Shown: one piece after another, positions 51,145-57,615 of the stretch
Position numbering within the stretch: position 1 is the first letter of the stretch
Layout of the letters: every line of letters begins with the position of its first letter
NCBI RefSeq assembly: GCF_041248615.1
Contig: NZ_CP158426.1
DNA from: Escherichia coli
GTDB lineage: Bacteria > Pseudomonadota > Gammaproteobacteria > Enterobacterales > Enterobacteriaceae
Reading direction: 5' to 3' (one strand)
DNA: 64,000 bases
Notes under the pieces: generated by a model
Database searches by the model: none
Seen by the model: the letters and a program-made list of their open reading frames with translations, nothing else
Told to the model about the DNA's origin: nothing
Made by a program: the position numbers and the translations under genes

Positions 51145-51411
51145 ATGATGAGCTTTCAGAAGATCTATAGCCCAACGCAATTAGCGAATGCAATGAAACT
51201 GGTTCGTCAGCAAAATGGCTGGACGCAGAGCGGGCTGGCGAAAAAAATCGGCATTAAGCAGGCGACAATTTCCAATTTCGAAAACAACCCTGACAATACC
51301 ACGCTGACGACATTTTTTAAGATTTTACAGTCGCTTGAACTCTCAATGACGCTATGCGACACGAAAAATGCCTCGCCAGAATCAACAGAACAGCAAGATC
51401 TGGAGTGGTAA
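51145..51411 (+). CDS. hipB: antitoxin HipB (Cro/C1-type HTH)
   Basis: ORF track 51127..51411; ATG at 51145 gives the 88-aa MMSFQKIYSPTQ start. Confidence 0.9.
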   Translation: MMSFQKIYSPTQLANAMKLVRQQNGWTQSGLAKKIGIKQATISNFENNPDNTTLTTFFKILQSLELSMTLCDTKNASPESTEQQDLEW

Positions 51412-52733
51412 TGCCTAAACTTGTCACTTGGATGAACAACCAGCGGGTAGGCGAGTTAACGAAGTTAGCCAATGGCGCGCACACCTTTAAGTATGCACCG
51501 GAGTGGTTAGCCAACCGTTATGCCAGACCGTTATCACTTTCGCTGCCATTGCAGAGGGGGAATATCACCTCTGATGCTGTATTTAACTTCTTCGATAACC
51601 TGCTACCCGATAGCCCGATTGTACGTGACCGGATCGTTAAACGTTATCATGCTAAATCCAGACAACCGTTTGATTTATTGTCAGAAATAGGGCGAGATAG
51701 CGTTGGTGCCGTAACGTTATTACCCGAAAATGAAACCATAACGCGCCCGATAATGGCATGGGAACAGCTCACTGAAGCCAGGCTTGAAGAAGTATTAACG
51801 GCTTATAAAGCAGATATCCCTCTGGGCATGATTAGAGAAGAAAATGACTTTCGCATCTCGGTTGCTGGCGCGCAGGAGAAGACAGCGCTGCTCAGAATAG
51901 GCAATGACTGGTGCATTCCGAAAGGAATAACGCCGACGACGCACATCATTAAATTACCGATTGGCGAAATCAGGCAGCCCAATGCGACGCTCGATCTCAG
52001 CCAAAGCGTTGATAATGAGTATTACTGTCTGCTGCTGGCGAAAGAACTTGGGTTGAATGTGCCGGACGCAGAAATCATTAAAGCGGGAAATGTGCGCGCG
52101 TTAGCGGTCGAACGTTTTGACAGGCGTTGGAATGCTGAGCGAACGGTTTTACTTCGCTTGCCACAGGAGGATATGTGTCAGACATTCGGTTTACCTTCAT
52201 CGGTGAAATATGAATCAGATGGAGGCCCAGGCATCGCGCGGATCATGGCTTTTTTGATGGGGTCCAGCGAGGCGCTGAAAGATCGCTATGATTTTATGAA
52301 GTTTCAGGTGTTCCAGTGGTTGATTGGCGCAACGGATGGCCATGCAAAAAACTTCTCCGTATTTATTCAGGCTGGCGGCAGTTATCGACTCACGCCATTT
52401 TACGACATCATTTCAGCATTTCCGGTATTGGGTGGCGCAGGAATACACATCAGCGATCTCAAACTGGCAATGGGGCTTAACGCATCCAAAGGCAAAAAAA
52501 CGGCAATCGATAAAATTTATCCGCGACATTTTCTGGCGACAGCAAAGGTGCTGAAATTTCCGGAAGTGCAGATGCATGAAATCCTGAGTGACTTTGCCAG
52601 AATGATTCCGGCAGCACTGGATAACGTGAAGACTTCATTACCGACAGATTTTCCGGAGAACGTGGTGACGGCAGTTGAAACCAATGTGTTGAGGTTGCAC
52701 GGCCGGTTAAGCCGAGAATACGGTATTAAGTAA
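51411..52733 (+). CDS. hipA: serine/threonine kinase toxin HipA
   Basis: ORF track 51354..52733; ATG at 51411 overlaps the hipB stop by 1 nt (TAATG); 440 aa; residue 22 is Gly. Confidence 0.9.
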   Translation: MPKLVTWMNNQRVGELTKLANGAHTFKYAPEWLANRYARPLSLSLPLQRGNITSDAVFNFFDNLLPDSPIVRDRIVKRYHAKSRQPFDLLSEIGRDSVGAVTLLPENETITRPIMAWEQLTEARLEEVLTAYKADIPLGMIREENDFRISVAGAQEKTALLRIGNDWCIPKGITPTTHIIKLPIGEIRQPNATLDLSQSVDNEYYCLLLAKELGLNVPDAEIIKAGNVRALAVERFDRRWNAERTVLLRLPQEDMCQTFGLPSSVKYESDGGPGIARIMAFLMGSSEALKDRYDFMKFQVFQWLIGATDGHAKNFSVFIQAGGSYRLTPFYDIISAFPVLGGAGIHISDLKLAMGLNASKGKKTAIDKIYPRHFLATAKVLKFPEVQMHEILSDFARMIPAALDNVKTSLPTDFPENVVTAVETNVLRLHGRLSREYGIK

Positions 52734-53131
52734 GATATGGGGTTTTGGTCGTTGTTAATGAGCAGGACAATCATGACCGCCAACGACTGGATTCTCCCTT
52801 GGTTTATGTTGGTGCGCATAATGTATATTATGTTAAATGTGGTGGGTTTGTTCTTAAGTTCATGTGTTCCGCTCTTTCAGTAGCTTAACTGATGAATCAG
52901 TCAGCAGCTCTTGCCGTGCAAGCTACGCGGCGGTTCGTACCAGATTGGCCACCTCCATCTCCTGGTTCGCTTTCCCCTCCCCCCGGTAAACCTCACCCAA
53001 CGTTAATTAATGATGTCAGTATGTGGGCGCTATCCTTGTATGTAAAATCCACTGACGATTACGCCCATCTGTGAAAAAAAACTCACAATGCCATTCGATG
53101 CATCTCCATACTGAACGAGGCGTTATCGTCT

Positions 53132-54031
53132 TTATCGCCCCGTAGTGGATATCAGAAAATCAATCAGGGCCTTCACTCTTTTCGTTTTACCCGCGTTTTT
53201 GGGGTAATAGAGATACACTGGCGGGTAGGTTTTCCAGTATCTCTCCATCACCGGAATAAAGCGCTCCCTGTCCGGCTGTAACTGCCAGACAGGCTCAAAC
53301 AAGCGCCCAATTCCCAGCCCGTTACGGATCCCGTCTGCCATAACGTCAATATCGTTGCTGATTAACTGCCCCGGCATCTCAACGGTCAACTGCTCACCGC
53401 GATCGTTCAGGAGCAGCGGAAGGATGCGGTTGTTGGTGATAAAACGGTAACCAATCAGCTGGTGATGACAGAGATCTGCCGGCACTTCAGGCGTTCCATG
53501 TCGGGAGAGATACGCTGAGGATGCATATAATCCTTCACGAAACGGTTTCATTAACGGTCGGGCCACCACCCCTCCCTCAAGAATATCGCCAAAACGGATC
53601 CCCAGATCAAAACGCTCTTTGATGATATTCACGGTACCGTCGTAGACCGAAATTTCTAACTGTATACCCGGATATTGCTGACAGAATTCTGCCATCGCAG
53701 GCTTAAGAATTAACAGGTAGGCAAAACGCGAGAGCGTAATTCGCACCATCCCAGAGGGCTCCTGATGCTGGTCGCGAATGCTTTCAAGTGAGTTTTCCAG
53801 CGACTCCACCGCCGCAGCGGTCTGTTCCAGCAATAATTGACCGGTTTCCGTCAGCTCTATACGGCGGGTCGTACGCACAAAAAGCGGATGGCCGATATAC
53901 TCTTCCAGCAGCTTTAGTGCATTGCTGACGGAGGGAGGCGTAATTTCCAGTTTCCTTGCGGCTGCCGAAATATTGCCCTCCCGCGCAATGCTCTGGAAGA
54001 TGCGAATCTGGTTATAAAGAGCGTTATTCAT
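53132..54031 (-). CDS. LysR-family transcriptional regulator (island-encoded)
   Basis: 299-aa ORF; N-terminal HTH (ISAAARKLEITPPSVSNALKLLEE); divergent from the enzyme run. Confidence 0.8.
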   Translation of the reverse strand: MNNALYNQIRIFQSIAREGNISAAARKLEITPPSVSNALKLLEEYIGHPLFVRTTRRIELTETGQLLLEQTAAAVESLENSLESIRDQHQEPSGMVRITLSRFAYLLILKPAMAEFCQQYPGIQLEISVYDGTVNIIKERFDLGIRFGDILEGGVVARPLMKPFREGLYASSAYLSRHGTPEVPADLCHHQLIGYRFITNNRILPLLLNDRGEQLTVEMPGQLISNDIDVMADGIRNGLGIGRLFEPVWQLQPDRERFIPVMERYWKTYPPVYLYYPKNAGKTKRVKALIDFLISTTGR

Positions 54032-54166
54032 AATGTTTTCCTAAGCAATTCTCGCCTGATTATTAAGTACAGTCTAAAAATGCTTAAGTCAATGACCCTC
54101 TAATCTTCCTGAAATACGCCTCTTATACTTTAGTCTCTTTCTACTACGACCTGAGTTCAGGAGACT

Positions 54167-54478
54167 ATGATGCGAATTTTATGTCTGGATATCCCTGCCC
54201 CTGGAGCATCGCTGGAGAAATATGCTCCGCACCTCAACGCTGAAGCGCTGCACGCCTGGGGATTGTATAAATCAGGCTTCATCCGCGACATCTACTTCCG
54301 TCAGGACAGACCTGGCGTCGCTATTTTTCTTGAATGTGACTCTGTCGATGAAGCGATGAACGTTATGGCCGAATTCCCGTTGGCAAAAGCAGGCTTACTA
54401 AGCTTCGAGTGTATACCGCTTGGCTCCTTTATTAACTGGGAAAATCTCTTCGCCGATGAATTTAAAAATAAAGAGTGA
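54167..54478 (+). CDS. small alpha+beta barrel protein, muconolactone isomerase/Dabb-like (tentative)
   Basis: 103-aa ORF with AGGAG RBS; family assignment from pattern resemblance only. Confidence 0.45.
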   Translation: MMRILCLDIPAPGASLEKYAPHLNAEALHAWGLYKSGFIRDIYFRQDRPGVAIFLECDSVDEAMNVMAEFPLAKAGLLSFECIPLGSFINWENLFADEFKNKE

Positions 54479-54486
54479 GGACCGAT

Positions 54487-55179
54487 ATGAAACCTGCATA
54501 TAAACCAGTGCTATGTGTCGTTTCCAGCCATCCGATTAAAGGCGCATCCGGTGTACCAACCGGTTTTTTCCTGGCCGAGCTGACTCATCCGCTGAAAGTA
54601 CTGGAAGATGCCGGAATAAAAACAACAATAGCCAGTATTCGCGGGGGGCAGCCACCGGTGGATGGATTTGACCTCAGCGACCCTGTTAACGCCTGGTACT
54701 GGAACGAAACCGATTTTCAGCAGCGCCTGGCAACAACACCTGCGTTATCCGAGCTGAAAGGTGCCGATTACAGCGCAGTTTTCTTTGCAGGTGGTCATGG
54801 GACCATGTGGGATTTCCGTGATAATCAGGATGCCCAGCGTATTATCCGCGAAGTGTATGAAAGTGATGGGATTGTCTCAGCCGTCTGCCACGGGCCTGCG
54901 GCATTGGTTGACGCAAAACTCAGTAGCGGCGAATACCTGATAAAAGGGAAAAATGTGGCGGCCTTTACCAACAAGGAAGAGGAAGAAGTTCACACAACAG
55001 ATGTGGTTCCCTTCCTGCTTGAAACCGCACTTCGCGAGCATGGTGCGCTTTATCATGAAGCTCCAAACTGGTCTGAAAACGTGGTTACCGACGATCGCCT
55101 TATCACGGGGCAGAAGAATCCCGCTTCAGCACATGGGGTTGGTGTGGCGCTGTTAAATGCACTCCGCCGGACAGCTTAA
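54487..55179 (+). CDS. DJ-1/PfpI-family protein (class I glutamine amidotransferase-like fold)
   Basis: ATG at 54487 after GAGG; nucleophile-elbow motif AVCHGPAAL; about 230 aa. Confidence 0.75.
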   Translation: MKPAYKPVLCVVSSHPIKGASGVPTGFFLAELTHPLKVLEDAGIKTTIASIRGGQPPVDGFDLSDPVNAWYWNETDFQQRLATTPALSELKGADYSAVFFAGGHGTMWDFRDNQDAQRIIREVYESDGIVSAVCHGPAALVDAKLSSGEYLIKGKNVAAFTNKEEEEVHTTDVVPFLLETALREHGALYHEAPNWSENVVTDDRLITGQKNPASAHGVGVALLNALRRTA

Positions 55180-55252
55180 TTAATTCATCGTTACTCACCT
55201 TACTTGGCCGGTTTAAGTCAGCCACGATCCGGCCTTTTTTCAGGAGCTGAAT

Positions 55253-56200
55253 ATGAAAACACTACCTCCAGTCGCACTAGGTACATGGTCCTGGGGCACA
55301 GGCTTTGCCGGCGGCGACACCGTCTTTGGTAATCATCTTTCTGATACTCAGATGGCAGAAGTGTTCACTGCGGCCATGAGTAAGGGCCTCAATCTCTGGG
55401 ATACCGCAGCAGTATATGATATGGGGAGTTCCGAGACTGCGCTGGGAGCATTAGTCCGTCAGTTTCCCCGCGAGAACATAATTTTATCCACCAAATTCAC
55501 GCCGCAGATTGCGGACAAGCAGTCTGCGCAGCCTGTCAGCGATATGCTTGAGGCCAGCCTTGGGCGCCTGGGCGTGGACGCGATTGATATCTACTGGATC
55601 CATAATCCCCTCGACGTCGAAAAATGGACACCAGGACTGATCCCACTTTTACAAAGCGGTAAGGTAAAACGCGTAGGTGTTTCCAACCACAATCTGGCAC
55701 AAATCAGACGCGCCAATGAAATCCTTAACGCTTCCGGTTATTCCCTCAGTGCAGTACAAAATCACTACAGCCTGCTCTATCGCGCTTCTGAAGAGGCCGG
55801 GATCCTTGATTATTGCCGACAAAATAACATCACGTTCTTTGCTTACATGGTCCTGGAGCAAGGCGCGCTCAGTGGTCGTTATGATTCAAATCATCCCATG
55901 CCTGCCGGGAGTGGCCGGGCCGAAAGTTATAACGCAGTACTGCCGCAGATAGAAAGACTAACCGCCGCCATGAAAAAAATGGGAGCCGAAAGGAATGCCA
56001 GCGTGGCACAGATAGCCATCGCATGGGCTATTGCGAAAGGTACCCTTCCCCTCGTTGGTGCGACTAAAGTCCATCACGTTCTGGACGCCGCCTGCGCTTC
56101 AGACATCCAGTTACGCGATGAGGAAATCATTCTGCTGGAACAACTCGCCGCAGAGACCAGAGTGGATACACGAGGCGCCTGGGAAAAACCGATGGTGTAA
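55253..56200 (+). CDS. aldo-keto reductase
   Basis: 315-aa ORF; AKR hallmarks (LWDTAAVYD, IYWIHNP). Confidence 0.8.
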   Translation: MKTLPPVALGTWSWGTGFAGGDTVFGNHLSDTQMAEVFTAAMSKGLNLWDTAAVYDMGSSETALGALVRQFPRENIILSTKFTPQIADKQSAQPVSDMLEASLGRLGVDAIDIYWIHNPLDVEKWTPGLIPLLQSGKVKRVGVSNHNLAQIRRANEILNASGYSLSAVQNHYSLLYRASEEAGILDYCRQNNITFFAYMVLEQGALSGRYDSNHPMPAGSGRAESYNAVLPQIERLTAAMKKMGAERNASVAQIAIAWAIAKGTLPLVGATKVHHVLDAACASDIQLRDEEIILLEQLAAETRVDTRGAWEKPMV

Positions 56201-56302
56201 AGCCCGTCCGGAACAGACTGTCATGAATGACACACACGAACGGGCTGTTCCGGGTGATTCTAATCTGTATCACTTTTACTGCTTTGTATGAATGGTGAGA
56301 AT

Positions 56303-56890
56303 ATGAAAATCATTTGCCTCGAAGAAAATTATCTCGACAGCGAGTTAGGGCGAGCGTGTATGCCTGTTGCGCTTGAGCAGGCACCTTTCCTTGGCGACTG
56401 GGGGAAAACCGTCGCTGATGGTCATAATCCTGACCGACTCCCCAGCGCAGAGGTCAACTCCAGGCTTTCTATGTTTGCCTGGGGCTGGCATCACGAAGCG
56501 GGGATCCATTTGTTGCGGCTGATGTTATCGGGCGCATTTGATAAATATCCCAACCTGCAGGTAATCAGTGGCCACTGGGGGGAGATGTTACCCTTCTGGC
56601 TCCAGCGTCTTGATGACAGACTACCACTGGCTGCAACGGGTCTGTCACGCACGCTAACGAGAACCTTCAAGGAACACGTTTACGTTACCCCGTCAGGTAT
56701 GCTGACACTGCCGCACTTCAAGTTTATCTACGAGTTAATGGGGGCAGAAAGGATCCTATTCTCCGTCGATTATCCCTATCAGACCCTGGACGGTGTAAAA
56801 ACCTTTATAGACAGTCTGCCCGTCAACAAGGCTGAAAAAGAGGCCATCGCATTTCGCAATGCAGAACGTTTACTGGGCATCACGGCGTAG
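56303..56890 (+). CDS. amidohydrolase-2 family protein, apparently N-terminally truncated (possible pseudogene)
   Basis: only ~195 aa; has C-terminal-half motifs (SGHWGE, FSVDYPY) but lacks the N-terminal HxH metal-binding region. Confidence 0.5.
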   Translation: MKIICLEENYLDSELGRACMPVALEQAPFLGDWGKTVADGHNPDRLPSAEVNSRLSMFAWGWHHEAGIHLLRLMLSGAFDKYPNLQVISGHWGEMLPFWLQRLDDRLPLAATGLSRTLTRTFKEHVYVTPSGMLTLPHFKFIYELMGAERILFSVDYPYQTLDGVKTFIDSLPVNKAEKEAIAFRNAERLLGITA

Positions 56891-57040
56891 TTCACGGGTT
56901 CGTGATGACCGGTACAATGAGAACAGTTGACCATTATTAGTTTTTGTCTAAAAGTGAATAAGTCTTTACTGCTCTAAAAAAAATAATGGTGTCACTCTAT
57001 ACTGGGTTAAACATTCACCAAATATATTTAACTCATTGAA

Positions 57041-57613
57041 ATGAAAAATATCCTTATTGTTTCAGGCCATCCTGAGCTTACCCATTCCGTCGCCAATGCC
57101 ACGATCCTTGATGAAGTGGAGACCGCCCTTCCTGATGTTGAGATTCGTCGTCTGGACAGGCTCTATCCGGATGGCAAATTCAACATCGCGGCGGAGCAGG
57201 AAAGCCTGCTCAGGGCCGATGTGATTGTCTGGCAGTTCCCTTTTTCCTGGTATGGGCTGCCAGGATTAATGAAAAAATGGCTGGACGAGGTCTTTGTTCA
57301 CGGCTTCGCGCATGGCTCAACGGCGAAACTGGGCGGTAAAAAGCTGATCCTCTCCTTTACAACGGGAGCGCCAGAGGAGCTCTATACCGTCGACAGTTTC
57401 TTTGGCCATACCATTGAAGAGTATCTAATTCGGTTCGAGACCACAGCAAAACTGTGCAATCTTGAGCTGCTGGAGCCGGTTTATACCTGCGGTATCAGCT
57501 ATGCCGATCGGGATGCCGACAAACTCGCGCAGCAAAAAACGCTTGCCCGGGAACACGCTTCAAGGCTTGTCGATCTGCTCAATTCCGTCGTGAATAATCC
57601 AGAGGGAGAATAA
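57041..57613 (+). CDS. flavodoxin-like fold NAD(P)H dehydrogenase (quinone), KefF/MdaB-like
   Basis: 190-aa ORF; N-terminal ILIVSGHP motif. Confidence 0.7.
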   Translation: MKNILIVSGHPELTHSVANATILDEVETALPDVEIRRLDRLYPDGKFNIAAEQESLLRADVIVWQFPFSWYGLPGLMKKWLDEVFVHGFAHGSTAKLGGKKLILSFTTGAPEELYTVDSFFGHTIEEYLIRFETTAKLCNLELLEPVYTCGISYADRDADKLAQQKTLAREHASRLVDLLNSVVNNPEGE

Positions 57614-57615
57614 CA

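Follow-up and report, generated by a model that had tools for sequence, protein, structure and literature searches.

The closest described relatives of the gene studied here are LigW 5-carboxyvanillate decarboxylase (4QRN/4INF), gamma-resorcylate decarboxylase (gamma-RSD; 2DVT/4QRO) and 2,3-dihydroxybenzoate decarboxylase (6M53/7A19). In LigW and gamma-RSD, the aspartate of strand 8 is a metal ligand and also the proton donor. An intact homologue of the gene matched all three decarboxylases with E values of about 1e-41 to 1e-45, ACMSD and IDCase being more distant sequence matches than the LigW group. The intact homologue was modelled with AlphaFold from a 33-sequence alignment (pLDDT 89, pTM 0.90), and the model gave TM-scores of 0.80-0.85, normalised to the query, against the three decarboxylases. 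Common to all are the Glu(-x-His) of strand 1, the His of strand 5, a His after strand 6, and the Asp of strand 8. The metal ligands are Glu19, His188 and Asp314 in LigW, and Glu8, His10, His164 and Asp287 in gamma-RSD (PMC8187880). A HMMER alignment placed H185 of the intact homologue at the His of the LigW motif PLYIHP (His188), and D310 at the Asp of MDYPYQ (Asp314); it is precisely at the D310 column that 4qs5, the chain with the D314N mutation, departs from 4inf. The parent enzyme is a member of Amidohydro_2, in the branch that holds ACMSD, LigW and gamma-resorcylate decarboxylase, and this branch uses a Glu-x-His motif here and not His-x-His. A substrate cannot be transferred from the decarboxylases because identity to them is only about 30%, and none can be named from NCBIfam, since neither the intact homologue nor the remnant described below matched an equivalog.

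The best match of all, in both sequence and fold, was PDB entry 3NUR, a putative amidohydrolase of Staphylococcus aureus from structural genomics. It aligned with residues 7-348 of the intact homologue (E = 1.3e-68), in an alignment that takes in the N-terminal FEEHY motif, and its TM-score to the model was 0.81 normalised to the query and 0.93 to the target. As no substrate has been assigned to 3NUR, it yields no functional name for the gene.

The copy described here lies in a 64,000-nucleotide stretch of Escherichia coli DNA, the whole of which is referred to as the window. About 150 residues from the middle of 3NUR have no counterpart in its ORF and, compared with the decarboxylases, the strand-5 His is deleted and the strand-1 His substituted. 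Sequence and modelling together make it very probable that the ORF is a non-functional remnant of a (beta/alpha)8-barrel metal-dependent enzyme of 344-349 aa, decayed by successive internal deletions. It is an ordinary decayed gene, and the sole curiosity is that the second deletion re-opened the frame.

Retained and deleted parts of the gene

The features of the locus are collected in Table 1. The original prediction had given the ORF about 195-200 aa, and both ends of that range were recovered, depending on which of two in-frame ATG codons is taken as the start. The second is the likelier of the two; it is the start of the RefSeq CDS WP_024190054.1 in a 100%-identical genome, and full-length Serratia and Pantoea homologues begin MKIICLEEHY, matching this codon. 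Motifs of the C-terminal half of amidohydrolase-2 enzymes, as originally reported, were confirmed by Pfam PF04909 (Amidohydro_2), which matched ORF residues 65-198 to profile positions 147-289 of 289 with 56.8 bits (cut-off 26.4); this profile skips the first 84 residues or more even in full-length homologues. The ORF is a homologous fragment of Amidohydro_2, and the complete domain is absent.

Table 1. Features of the island and of the amidohydrolase remnant, with positions in the window.
Feature	Position	Strand	Remarks
Island, LysR gene plus operon	52734-60944		Between hipA (51354-52733) and the C-terminal fragment of an AraC/yneL-like HTH gene (60741-60944), marked by RefSeq as missing its N-terminus
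LysR regulator	53132-54031	-	Divergent from the operon
Operon gene 1, 103-aa protein		+	No Pfam match
Operon gene 2, DJ-1/PfpI protein		+	
Operon gene 3, aldo/keto reductase	55253-56200	+	
Intercistronic stem-loop	56205..56256	+	In the gap from the aldo/keto reductase stop (56198-56200) to the start of the amidohydrolase ORF; pattern search and folding
Operon gene 4, amidohydrolase remnant ORF	56288-56890	+	200 aa in the ORF list
Shine-Dalgarno-like GGTGAG	56294..56299	+	3 nt upstream of ATG 56303; read from the sequence; conserved in L005 and L012
Remnant CDS, Amidohydro_2 (ACMSD/LigW-like decarboxylase branch)	56303..56890	+	195 aa from ATG 56303; 200 aa from in-frame ATG 56288
Retained N-terminal segment, residues 1-50 of the 349-aa parent	56288..56437	+	Gene nt 1-150; strand 1 with the Glu-x-His motif, here LEENY; DNA alignment to L004 and L005, protein alignment
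Asn14 codon AAT	56327..56329	+	CAT (His14) in E. coli GN25 and in full-length homologues, where it encodes the second residue of the Glu-x-His metal motif
Deletion 1 junction	56437..56438	+	356 bp, gene nt 151-506; frameshift; absent from the window and KY1497, junction common to all other E. coli alleles examined
Surviving CTCCC between the two deletions	56438..56442	+	Gene nt 507-511
Deletion 2 junction	56442..56443	+	91 bp, gene nt 512-602; removes the strand-5 metal His of YLHPG; KY1497 and GN25 keep the 91 bp
Retained C-terminal segment, residues 202-349 of the parent	56443..56890	+	Gene nt 603-1050; strands 6-8, His245, Asp310
Operon genes downstream of the remnant		+	Flavodoxin-fold NAD(P)H oxidoreductase, second aldo/keto reductase, ABM-domain protein, CMD-family protein

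A tblastn search of the window with a full-length protein (P0004) matched residues 1-59 at 86% identity and residues 202-349 at 94%. When the missing residues 51-201 and the whole intact protein were searched against all 64 kb, only the two retained segments matched. Rearrangement or relocation of the missing middle is thereby excluded, as there is no second site in the window, and the search for missing coding sequence just upstream of the ORF, which the original prediction had proposed as a check, likewise came back empty.

Alignment of the window with two full-length genes (L004 and L005) and with the E. coli KY1497 allele resolved the loss into a 356-bp gap, 5 nt, and a 91-bp gap. Together these remove 447 bp, or 149 codons, which puts the first 50 codons into one frame again with the last 148, and residues 51-201 of the parent are replaced by Leu-Pro in the window product. 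In the intact gene, the 8-bp sequence ATCCTGAC occurs as a direct repeat, one copy 3 nt and the other 5 nt ahead of a breakpoint of the 356-bp deletion; the gene reads CATAATCCTGACCGA/AGCC and GATCATCCTGACTATGA/CTCC at these points (the slash marks the breakpoint), each just past one copy of the repeat. Because this short repeat adjoins the breakpoints, an arrangement typical of slippage or illegitimate recombination, it suggests that replication slippage or illegitimate recombination at ATCCTGAC produced the 356-bp deletion. The 91-bp deletion has junctional homology of 1 nt at most.

In the model of the intact homologue, strands were found at residues 9-15, 83-88, 122-124, 152-155, 182-185, 241-243 and 280-282, with a short strand or bridge at residues 305-314 around Asp310. 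Residues 51-201 hold barrel strands 2-5 (residues 83-185) and their helices, and these four of the eight strands of a complete (beta/alpha)8 barrel are gone from the window protein. All 32 aligned homologues have lengths of 338-350 aa, in taxa that range from Enterobacterales to Xanthomonas and Pseudomonas; short forms were listed only as near-identical alleles, nearly all of them under the label E. coli, and the distinct short family that had been put forward as one option did not materialise. Four positions (E12, E13, H245 and D310) do not vary across the 32 full-length homologues, all of which also have H14 and H185.

E12, H245 (His96 of the window protein, 56573-56575) and D310 (its Asp161, in the motif SVDYPY; 56768-56770) survive in the window; position 14 is Asn there, and H185 is missing because it falls within the 91-bp deletion. 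The N-terminal metal-binding region, which the original prediction considered to be lacking, is present in altered form, since residues 1-50 are the authentic N-terminus and strand 1 carries the Glu-x-His motif as LEENY, with E12 kept and H14 changed (H14N). Its equivalence to the LigW and gamma-RSD ligands was taken from the 3NUR alignment and the motif pattern. Of the barrel, the 195/200-aa product would have only strands 1, 6, 7 and 8, and of the four metal ligands only two, and neither the barrel nor the metal site should form. Because half of the barrel and two of the four ligand residues are lost, as judged from sequence and model, an active enzyme is not credible, and we infer that the window copy cannot be a working member of the decarboxylase branch.

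Alleles, constraint and alternative histories

Full-length homologues of 349 and 344 aa, 94-98% identical over the shared parts in a protein search, occupy the same operon with the same neighbours. The intact gene stands at the same operon position in L004-L006 and L012, and the protein clusters of the contigs with a full-length gene are named Enterobacter, Klebsiella, Pantoea and Serratia.

Among 5426 complete E. coli genomes, the locus is carried by 472, with 463 of these covering 80% or more of the query. The 356-bp piece had no megablast match in any of the 5426, and sensitive blastn with a full-length allele labelled E. coli reached 80% coverage in none of them, only the last 25% of that allele being matched. 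Every copy of the gene in complete E. coli genomes thus has the 356-bp deletion and is already broken. The 91-bp piece is kept in 462 of the 463, and the double-deletion allele is, by subtraction, present in one, which is a 100% match. In a larger protein collection, the exact 200-aa product was found on 608 contigs, the 195-aa call on 416, and the 187-aa single-deletion product on at least 999.

The single-deletion E. coli allele (WP_001322415.1, 51 aa, plus WP_023153757.1, 187 aa), of which KY1497 is an example, has the locus, left junction and H14N of the window allele and is 99.1% identical to it outside the 91-bp indel. It keeps the 91 bp and is left with two frameshifted ORFs, whereas the window allele, without them, has one of 195/200 aa. 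In KY1497 the two pieces are annotated as a 51-aa 'hypothetical protein' and a 187-aa 'amidohydrolase family protein'. The GN25 allele retains CAT (His14), but its C-terminal ORF is broken in two by another deletion, of 2 bp, and a split C-terminal ORF of this kind is annotated in about half of the sampled complete E. coli genomes; sister E. coli alleles carry independent extra lesions.

Substitutions between KY1497 and the window, both deleted alleles, were 6 non-synonymous to 1 synonymous. In the retained regions of intact genes the ratio was, for example, 9 to 19, with dN/dS of 0.13-0.16. The two ratios differ by Fisher's exact test (p = 0.027), on small counts; the comparison of the window with its closest intact relative, L004, gave 4 to 2, likewise a small count and not significant on its own (p = 0.17). 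These figures point to relaxed constraint on the deleted alleles.

The history proposed for the gene starts from an intact parent in fourth place in a LysR-controlled operon of redox and detoxification-type genes. The 356-bp deletion next to the ATCCTGAC repeat would have come first, removing codons 51-169 and shifting the frame. The H14N change would then have destroyed one metal ligand in a subset of alleles, after which the window lineage would have lost a further 91 bp, 5 nt downstream, and with it the strand-5 metal His, restoring the frame. This order of the two deletions is proposed because the window and KY1497 have the left junction, CTCCC and H14N in common. A metagenome contig (L015) with a 200-aa variant has a double-deletion junction identical to that of the window, and for this reason the 91-bp deletion is taken to have arisen once.

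The case for a pseudogene is made up of the intact orthologue at the same operon position, the damage to conserved parts, the further lesions in sister alleles, and the relaxed constraint, the last on a small sample. Some observations pull the other way. An unbroken frame leads from a good start codon to the native stop, RefSeq treats the remnant as an ordinary CDS, the number of contigs with the exact 200-aa product indicates an allele that persists and could in principle be expressed, and the substitution counts are tiny, with that against L004 short of significance.

The same observations could be turned into a case for function. A distinct short protein might be made, for instance a 'half-barrel' that dimerises to a pseudo-barrel, or translation through the restored frame might relieve polarity on the four downstream genes. 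The frame does run from the native ribosome-binding site to the native stop in an allele found on about 600 contigs, and the single-deletion allele stops after 51 codons, leaving about 540 nt covered only by the internal 187-codon ORF, which could be polar. However, about one deletion in three would restore the frame by chance, and the allele has a single origin (the L015 junction being the same) and occurs in one complete genome with the locus against 462 that are frameshifted. Two of the four metal ligands and four of the eight strands are gone, the changes between deleted alleles are mostly non-synonymous, and short homologues were not found outside this clone. A functional short product or relief of polarity is therefore improbable. 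Little credence can likewise be given to selection for the 91-bp deletion itself, whether by suppressing Rho-dependent polarity and so restoring expression of the downstream oxidoreductase, reductase, monooxygenase and CMD genes, or through a role of its own for a half-barrel of strand 1 and strands 6-8.

Still less probable is a one-step origin, in which a single 447-bp deletion would have removed the central part from a full-length ancestor, independently of the common 356-bp allele. The number of bases lost in all divides exactly by three, as such an event might give, but the window keeps CTCCC immediately to the right of the 356-bp junction, which a single event could match only with an identical 5-nt filler, and the left junction and H14N are those of the KY1497 allele.

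Least tenable is the N-terminal truncation of the original prediction, with the 5' end lost and palindrome-bearing sequence in its place: Pfam sees only the C-terminal half of the domain and a motif-based reader would see no N-terminal match, but residues 1-50, the start codon, the ribosome-binding region and the upstream intergenic region are collinear with, and near-identical to, those of full-length loci, and the loss is internal, with both gaps inside the gene (56437/56438 and 56442/56443).

RefSeq at present names the remnant, as well as the 51-aa and 187-aa pieces of the commoner allele, as ordinary proteins, and all three should instead carry a pseudogene-fragment flag. No complete E. 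coli genome among the 5426 searched appears to encode a working enzyme from this gene, and an amidohydrolase or decarboxylase step should not be counted for the hipA-adjacent island. The locus is a clean, small case of stepwise decay, and owing to the second deletion gene callers take a dead gene for a live one.

The upstream palindrome and the surrounding operon

A palindromic element upstream of the ORF had been taken as standing in place of coding sequence. That the region is non-coding was upheld (87-102 bp, with no tblastn match to the missing residues); that it replaces lost coding sequence was not, as intact operons normally carry the palindrome and it has no connection with the truncation. 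It consists of an inverted repeat, CCGGAACAG-N28-CTGTTCCGG, at 56208-56253, with perfect 9-bp arms (56208-56216 and 56245-56253), and this pattern was matched in none of 100 shuffles of the window. It begins 5 nt past the reductase stop, and its predicted fold (-21.2 kcal/mol, z = -2.27) is an inner hairpin closed by a stem of 12 pairs. L004 and L005, which have the full-length gene, show no difference from the window in the palindrome or in the rest of the upstream intergenic region. The Serratia ficaria locus has an A-to-G change in the stem, where a G.U pair preserves the pairing, and the loop differs at several positions; because the stem is maintained while the loop varies, a role in RNA is weakly favoured over a DNA-binding site. 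The Pantoea cypripedii locus (L013), which has another gene neighbourhood, lacks the upstream palindrome and was set aside in judging the stem-loop.

Several other identities were considered for the element. An intrinsic terminator was rejected, there being no T tract at the palindrome and no match to it in the terminator scan, and a REP-type dispersed repeat was rejected on its single occurrence in the window. No Rfam family matched the palindrome. The region was also compared with the 47-aa twin-arginine extension of the 391-aa variants described below, as a possible degraded signal peptide or N-terminal coding sequence, and no meaningful DNA or protein similarity was seen. The best reading, drawn from its sequence, is a conserved intercistronic stem-loop that may act in mRNA stability, processing or partial attenuation.

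The window is chromosomal, and isolate 362 (NZ_OW967178.1) has a 100%-identical stretch. The island there has hipBA on one side and, on the other, a truncated yneL-like HTH gene and then the fimbrial genes of the ydeS region. The original description of a decayed gene within an otherwise intact operon holds for the gene but not for the operon, from which a 952-bp deletion has removed two further genes. Compared with the Enterobacter-type and Serratia loci L004, L005 and L012, these 952 bp are absent at window positions 58636-58750, with the breakpoint at about 58649, in the interval from the second aldo/keto reductase gene to the ABM gene. They held a DUF1330 gene and all of a second flavodoxin-fold gene but about 90 bp at its 3' end, which are left.

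The full-length copy closest to the window allele, at 4214-5263 of L004, differs from it by 6 nt over the retained parts. It has Asn in place of the strand-5 metal His (YLNPG), and the aldo/keto reductase and ABM genes of the L004 operon are split, which indicates independent decay in another lineage. Across window positions 53104-60533 the operon is about 93% identical to that of L004, whereas within the amidohydrolase gene the two disagree at no more than 6 of the roughly 600 retained nt, which suggests a mosaic or recombinant history for this segment.

Another copy of the operon, about 92% identical and with a full-length amidohydrolase gene, was seen in L007-L011 (assemblies and metagenome scaffolds in clusters labelled E. 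coli and E. whittamii), either beside phage tail genes and a fragment of an integrase or among the genes of conjugative elements. The amidohydrolase of these copies has a 391-aa gene call, with a 47-aa N-terminal extension that carries a twin-arginine-like motif (PERRDLIKKG); the extension suggests that these variants are exported, as a prediction.

In KY1497, a fragment of an ISNCY transposase lies just upstream of the LysR gene. In the window, the translated products of the ABM-domain gene (58751-59476) and the CMD-family gene (59492-60295) have hydrophobic, signal-peptide-like N-termini (MKKTFMLLICMLISSPVFA... and MKSVLAAAAMSLVISDFANA..., respectively), and part of the chemistry of the operon may, by this prediction, be periplasmic.
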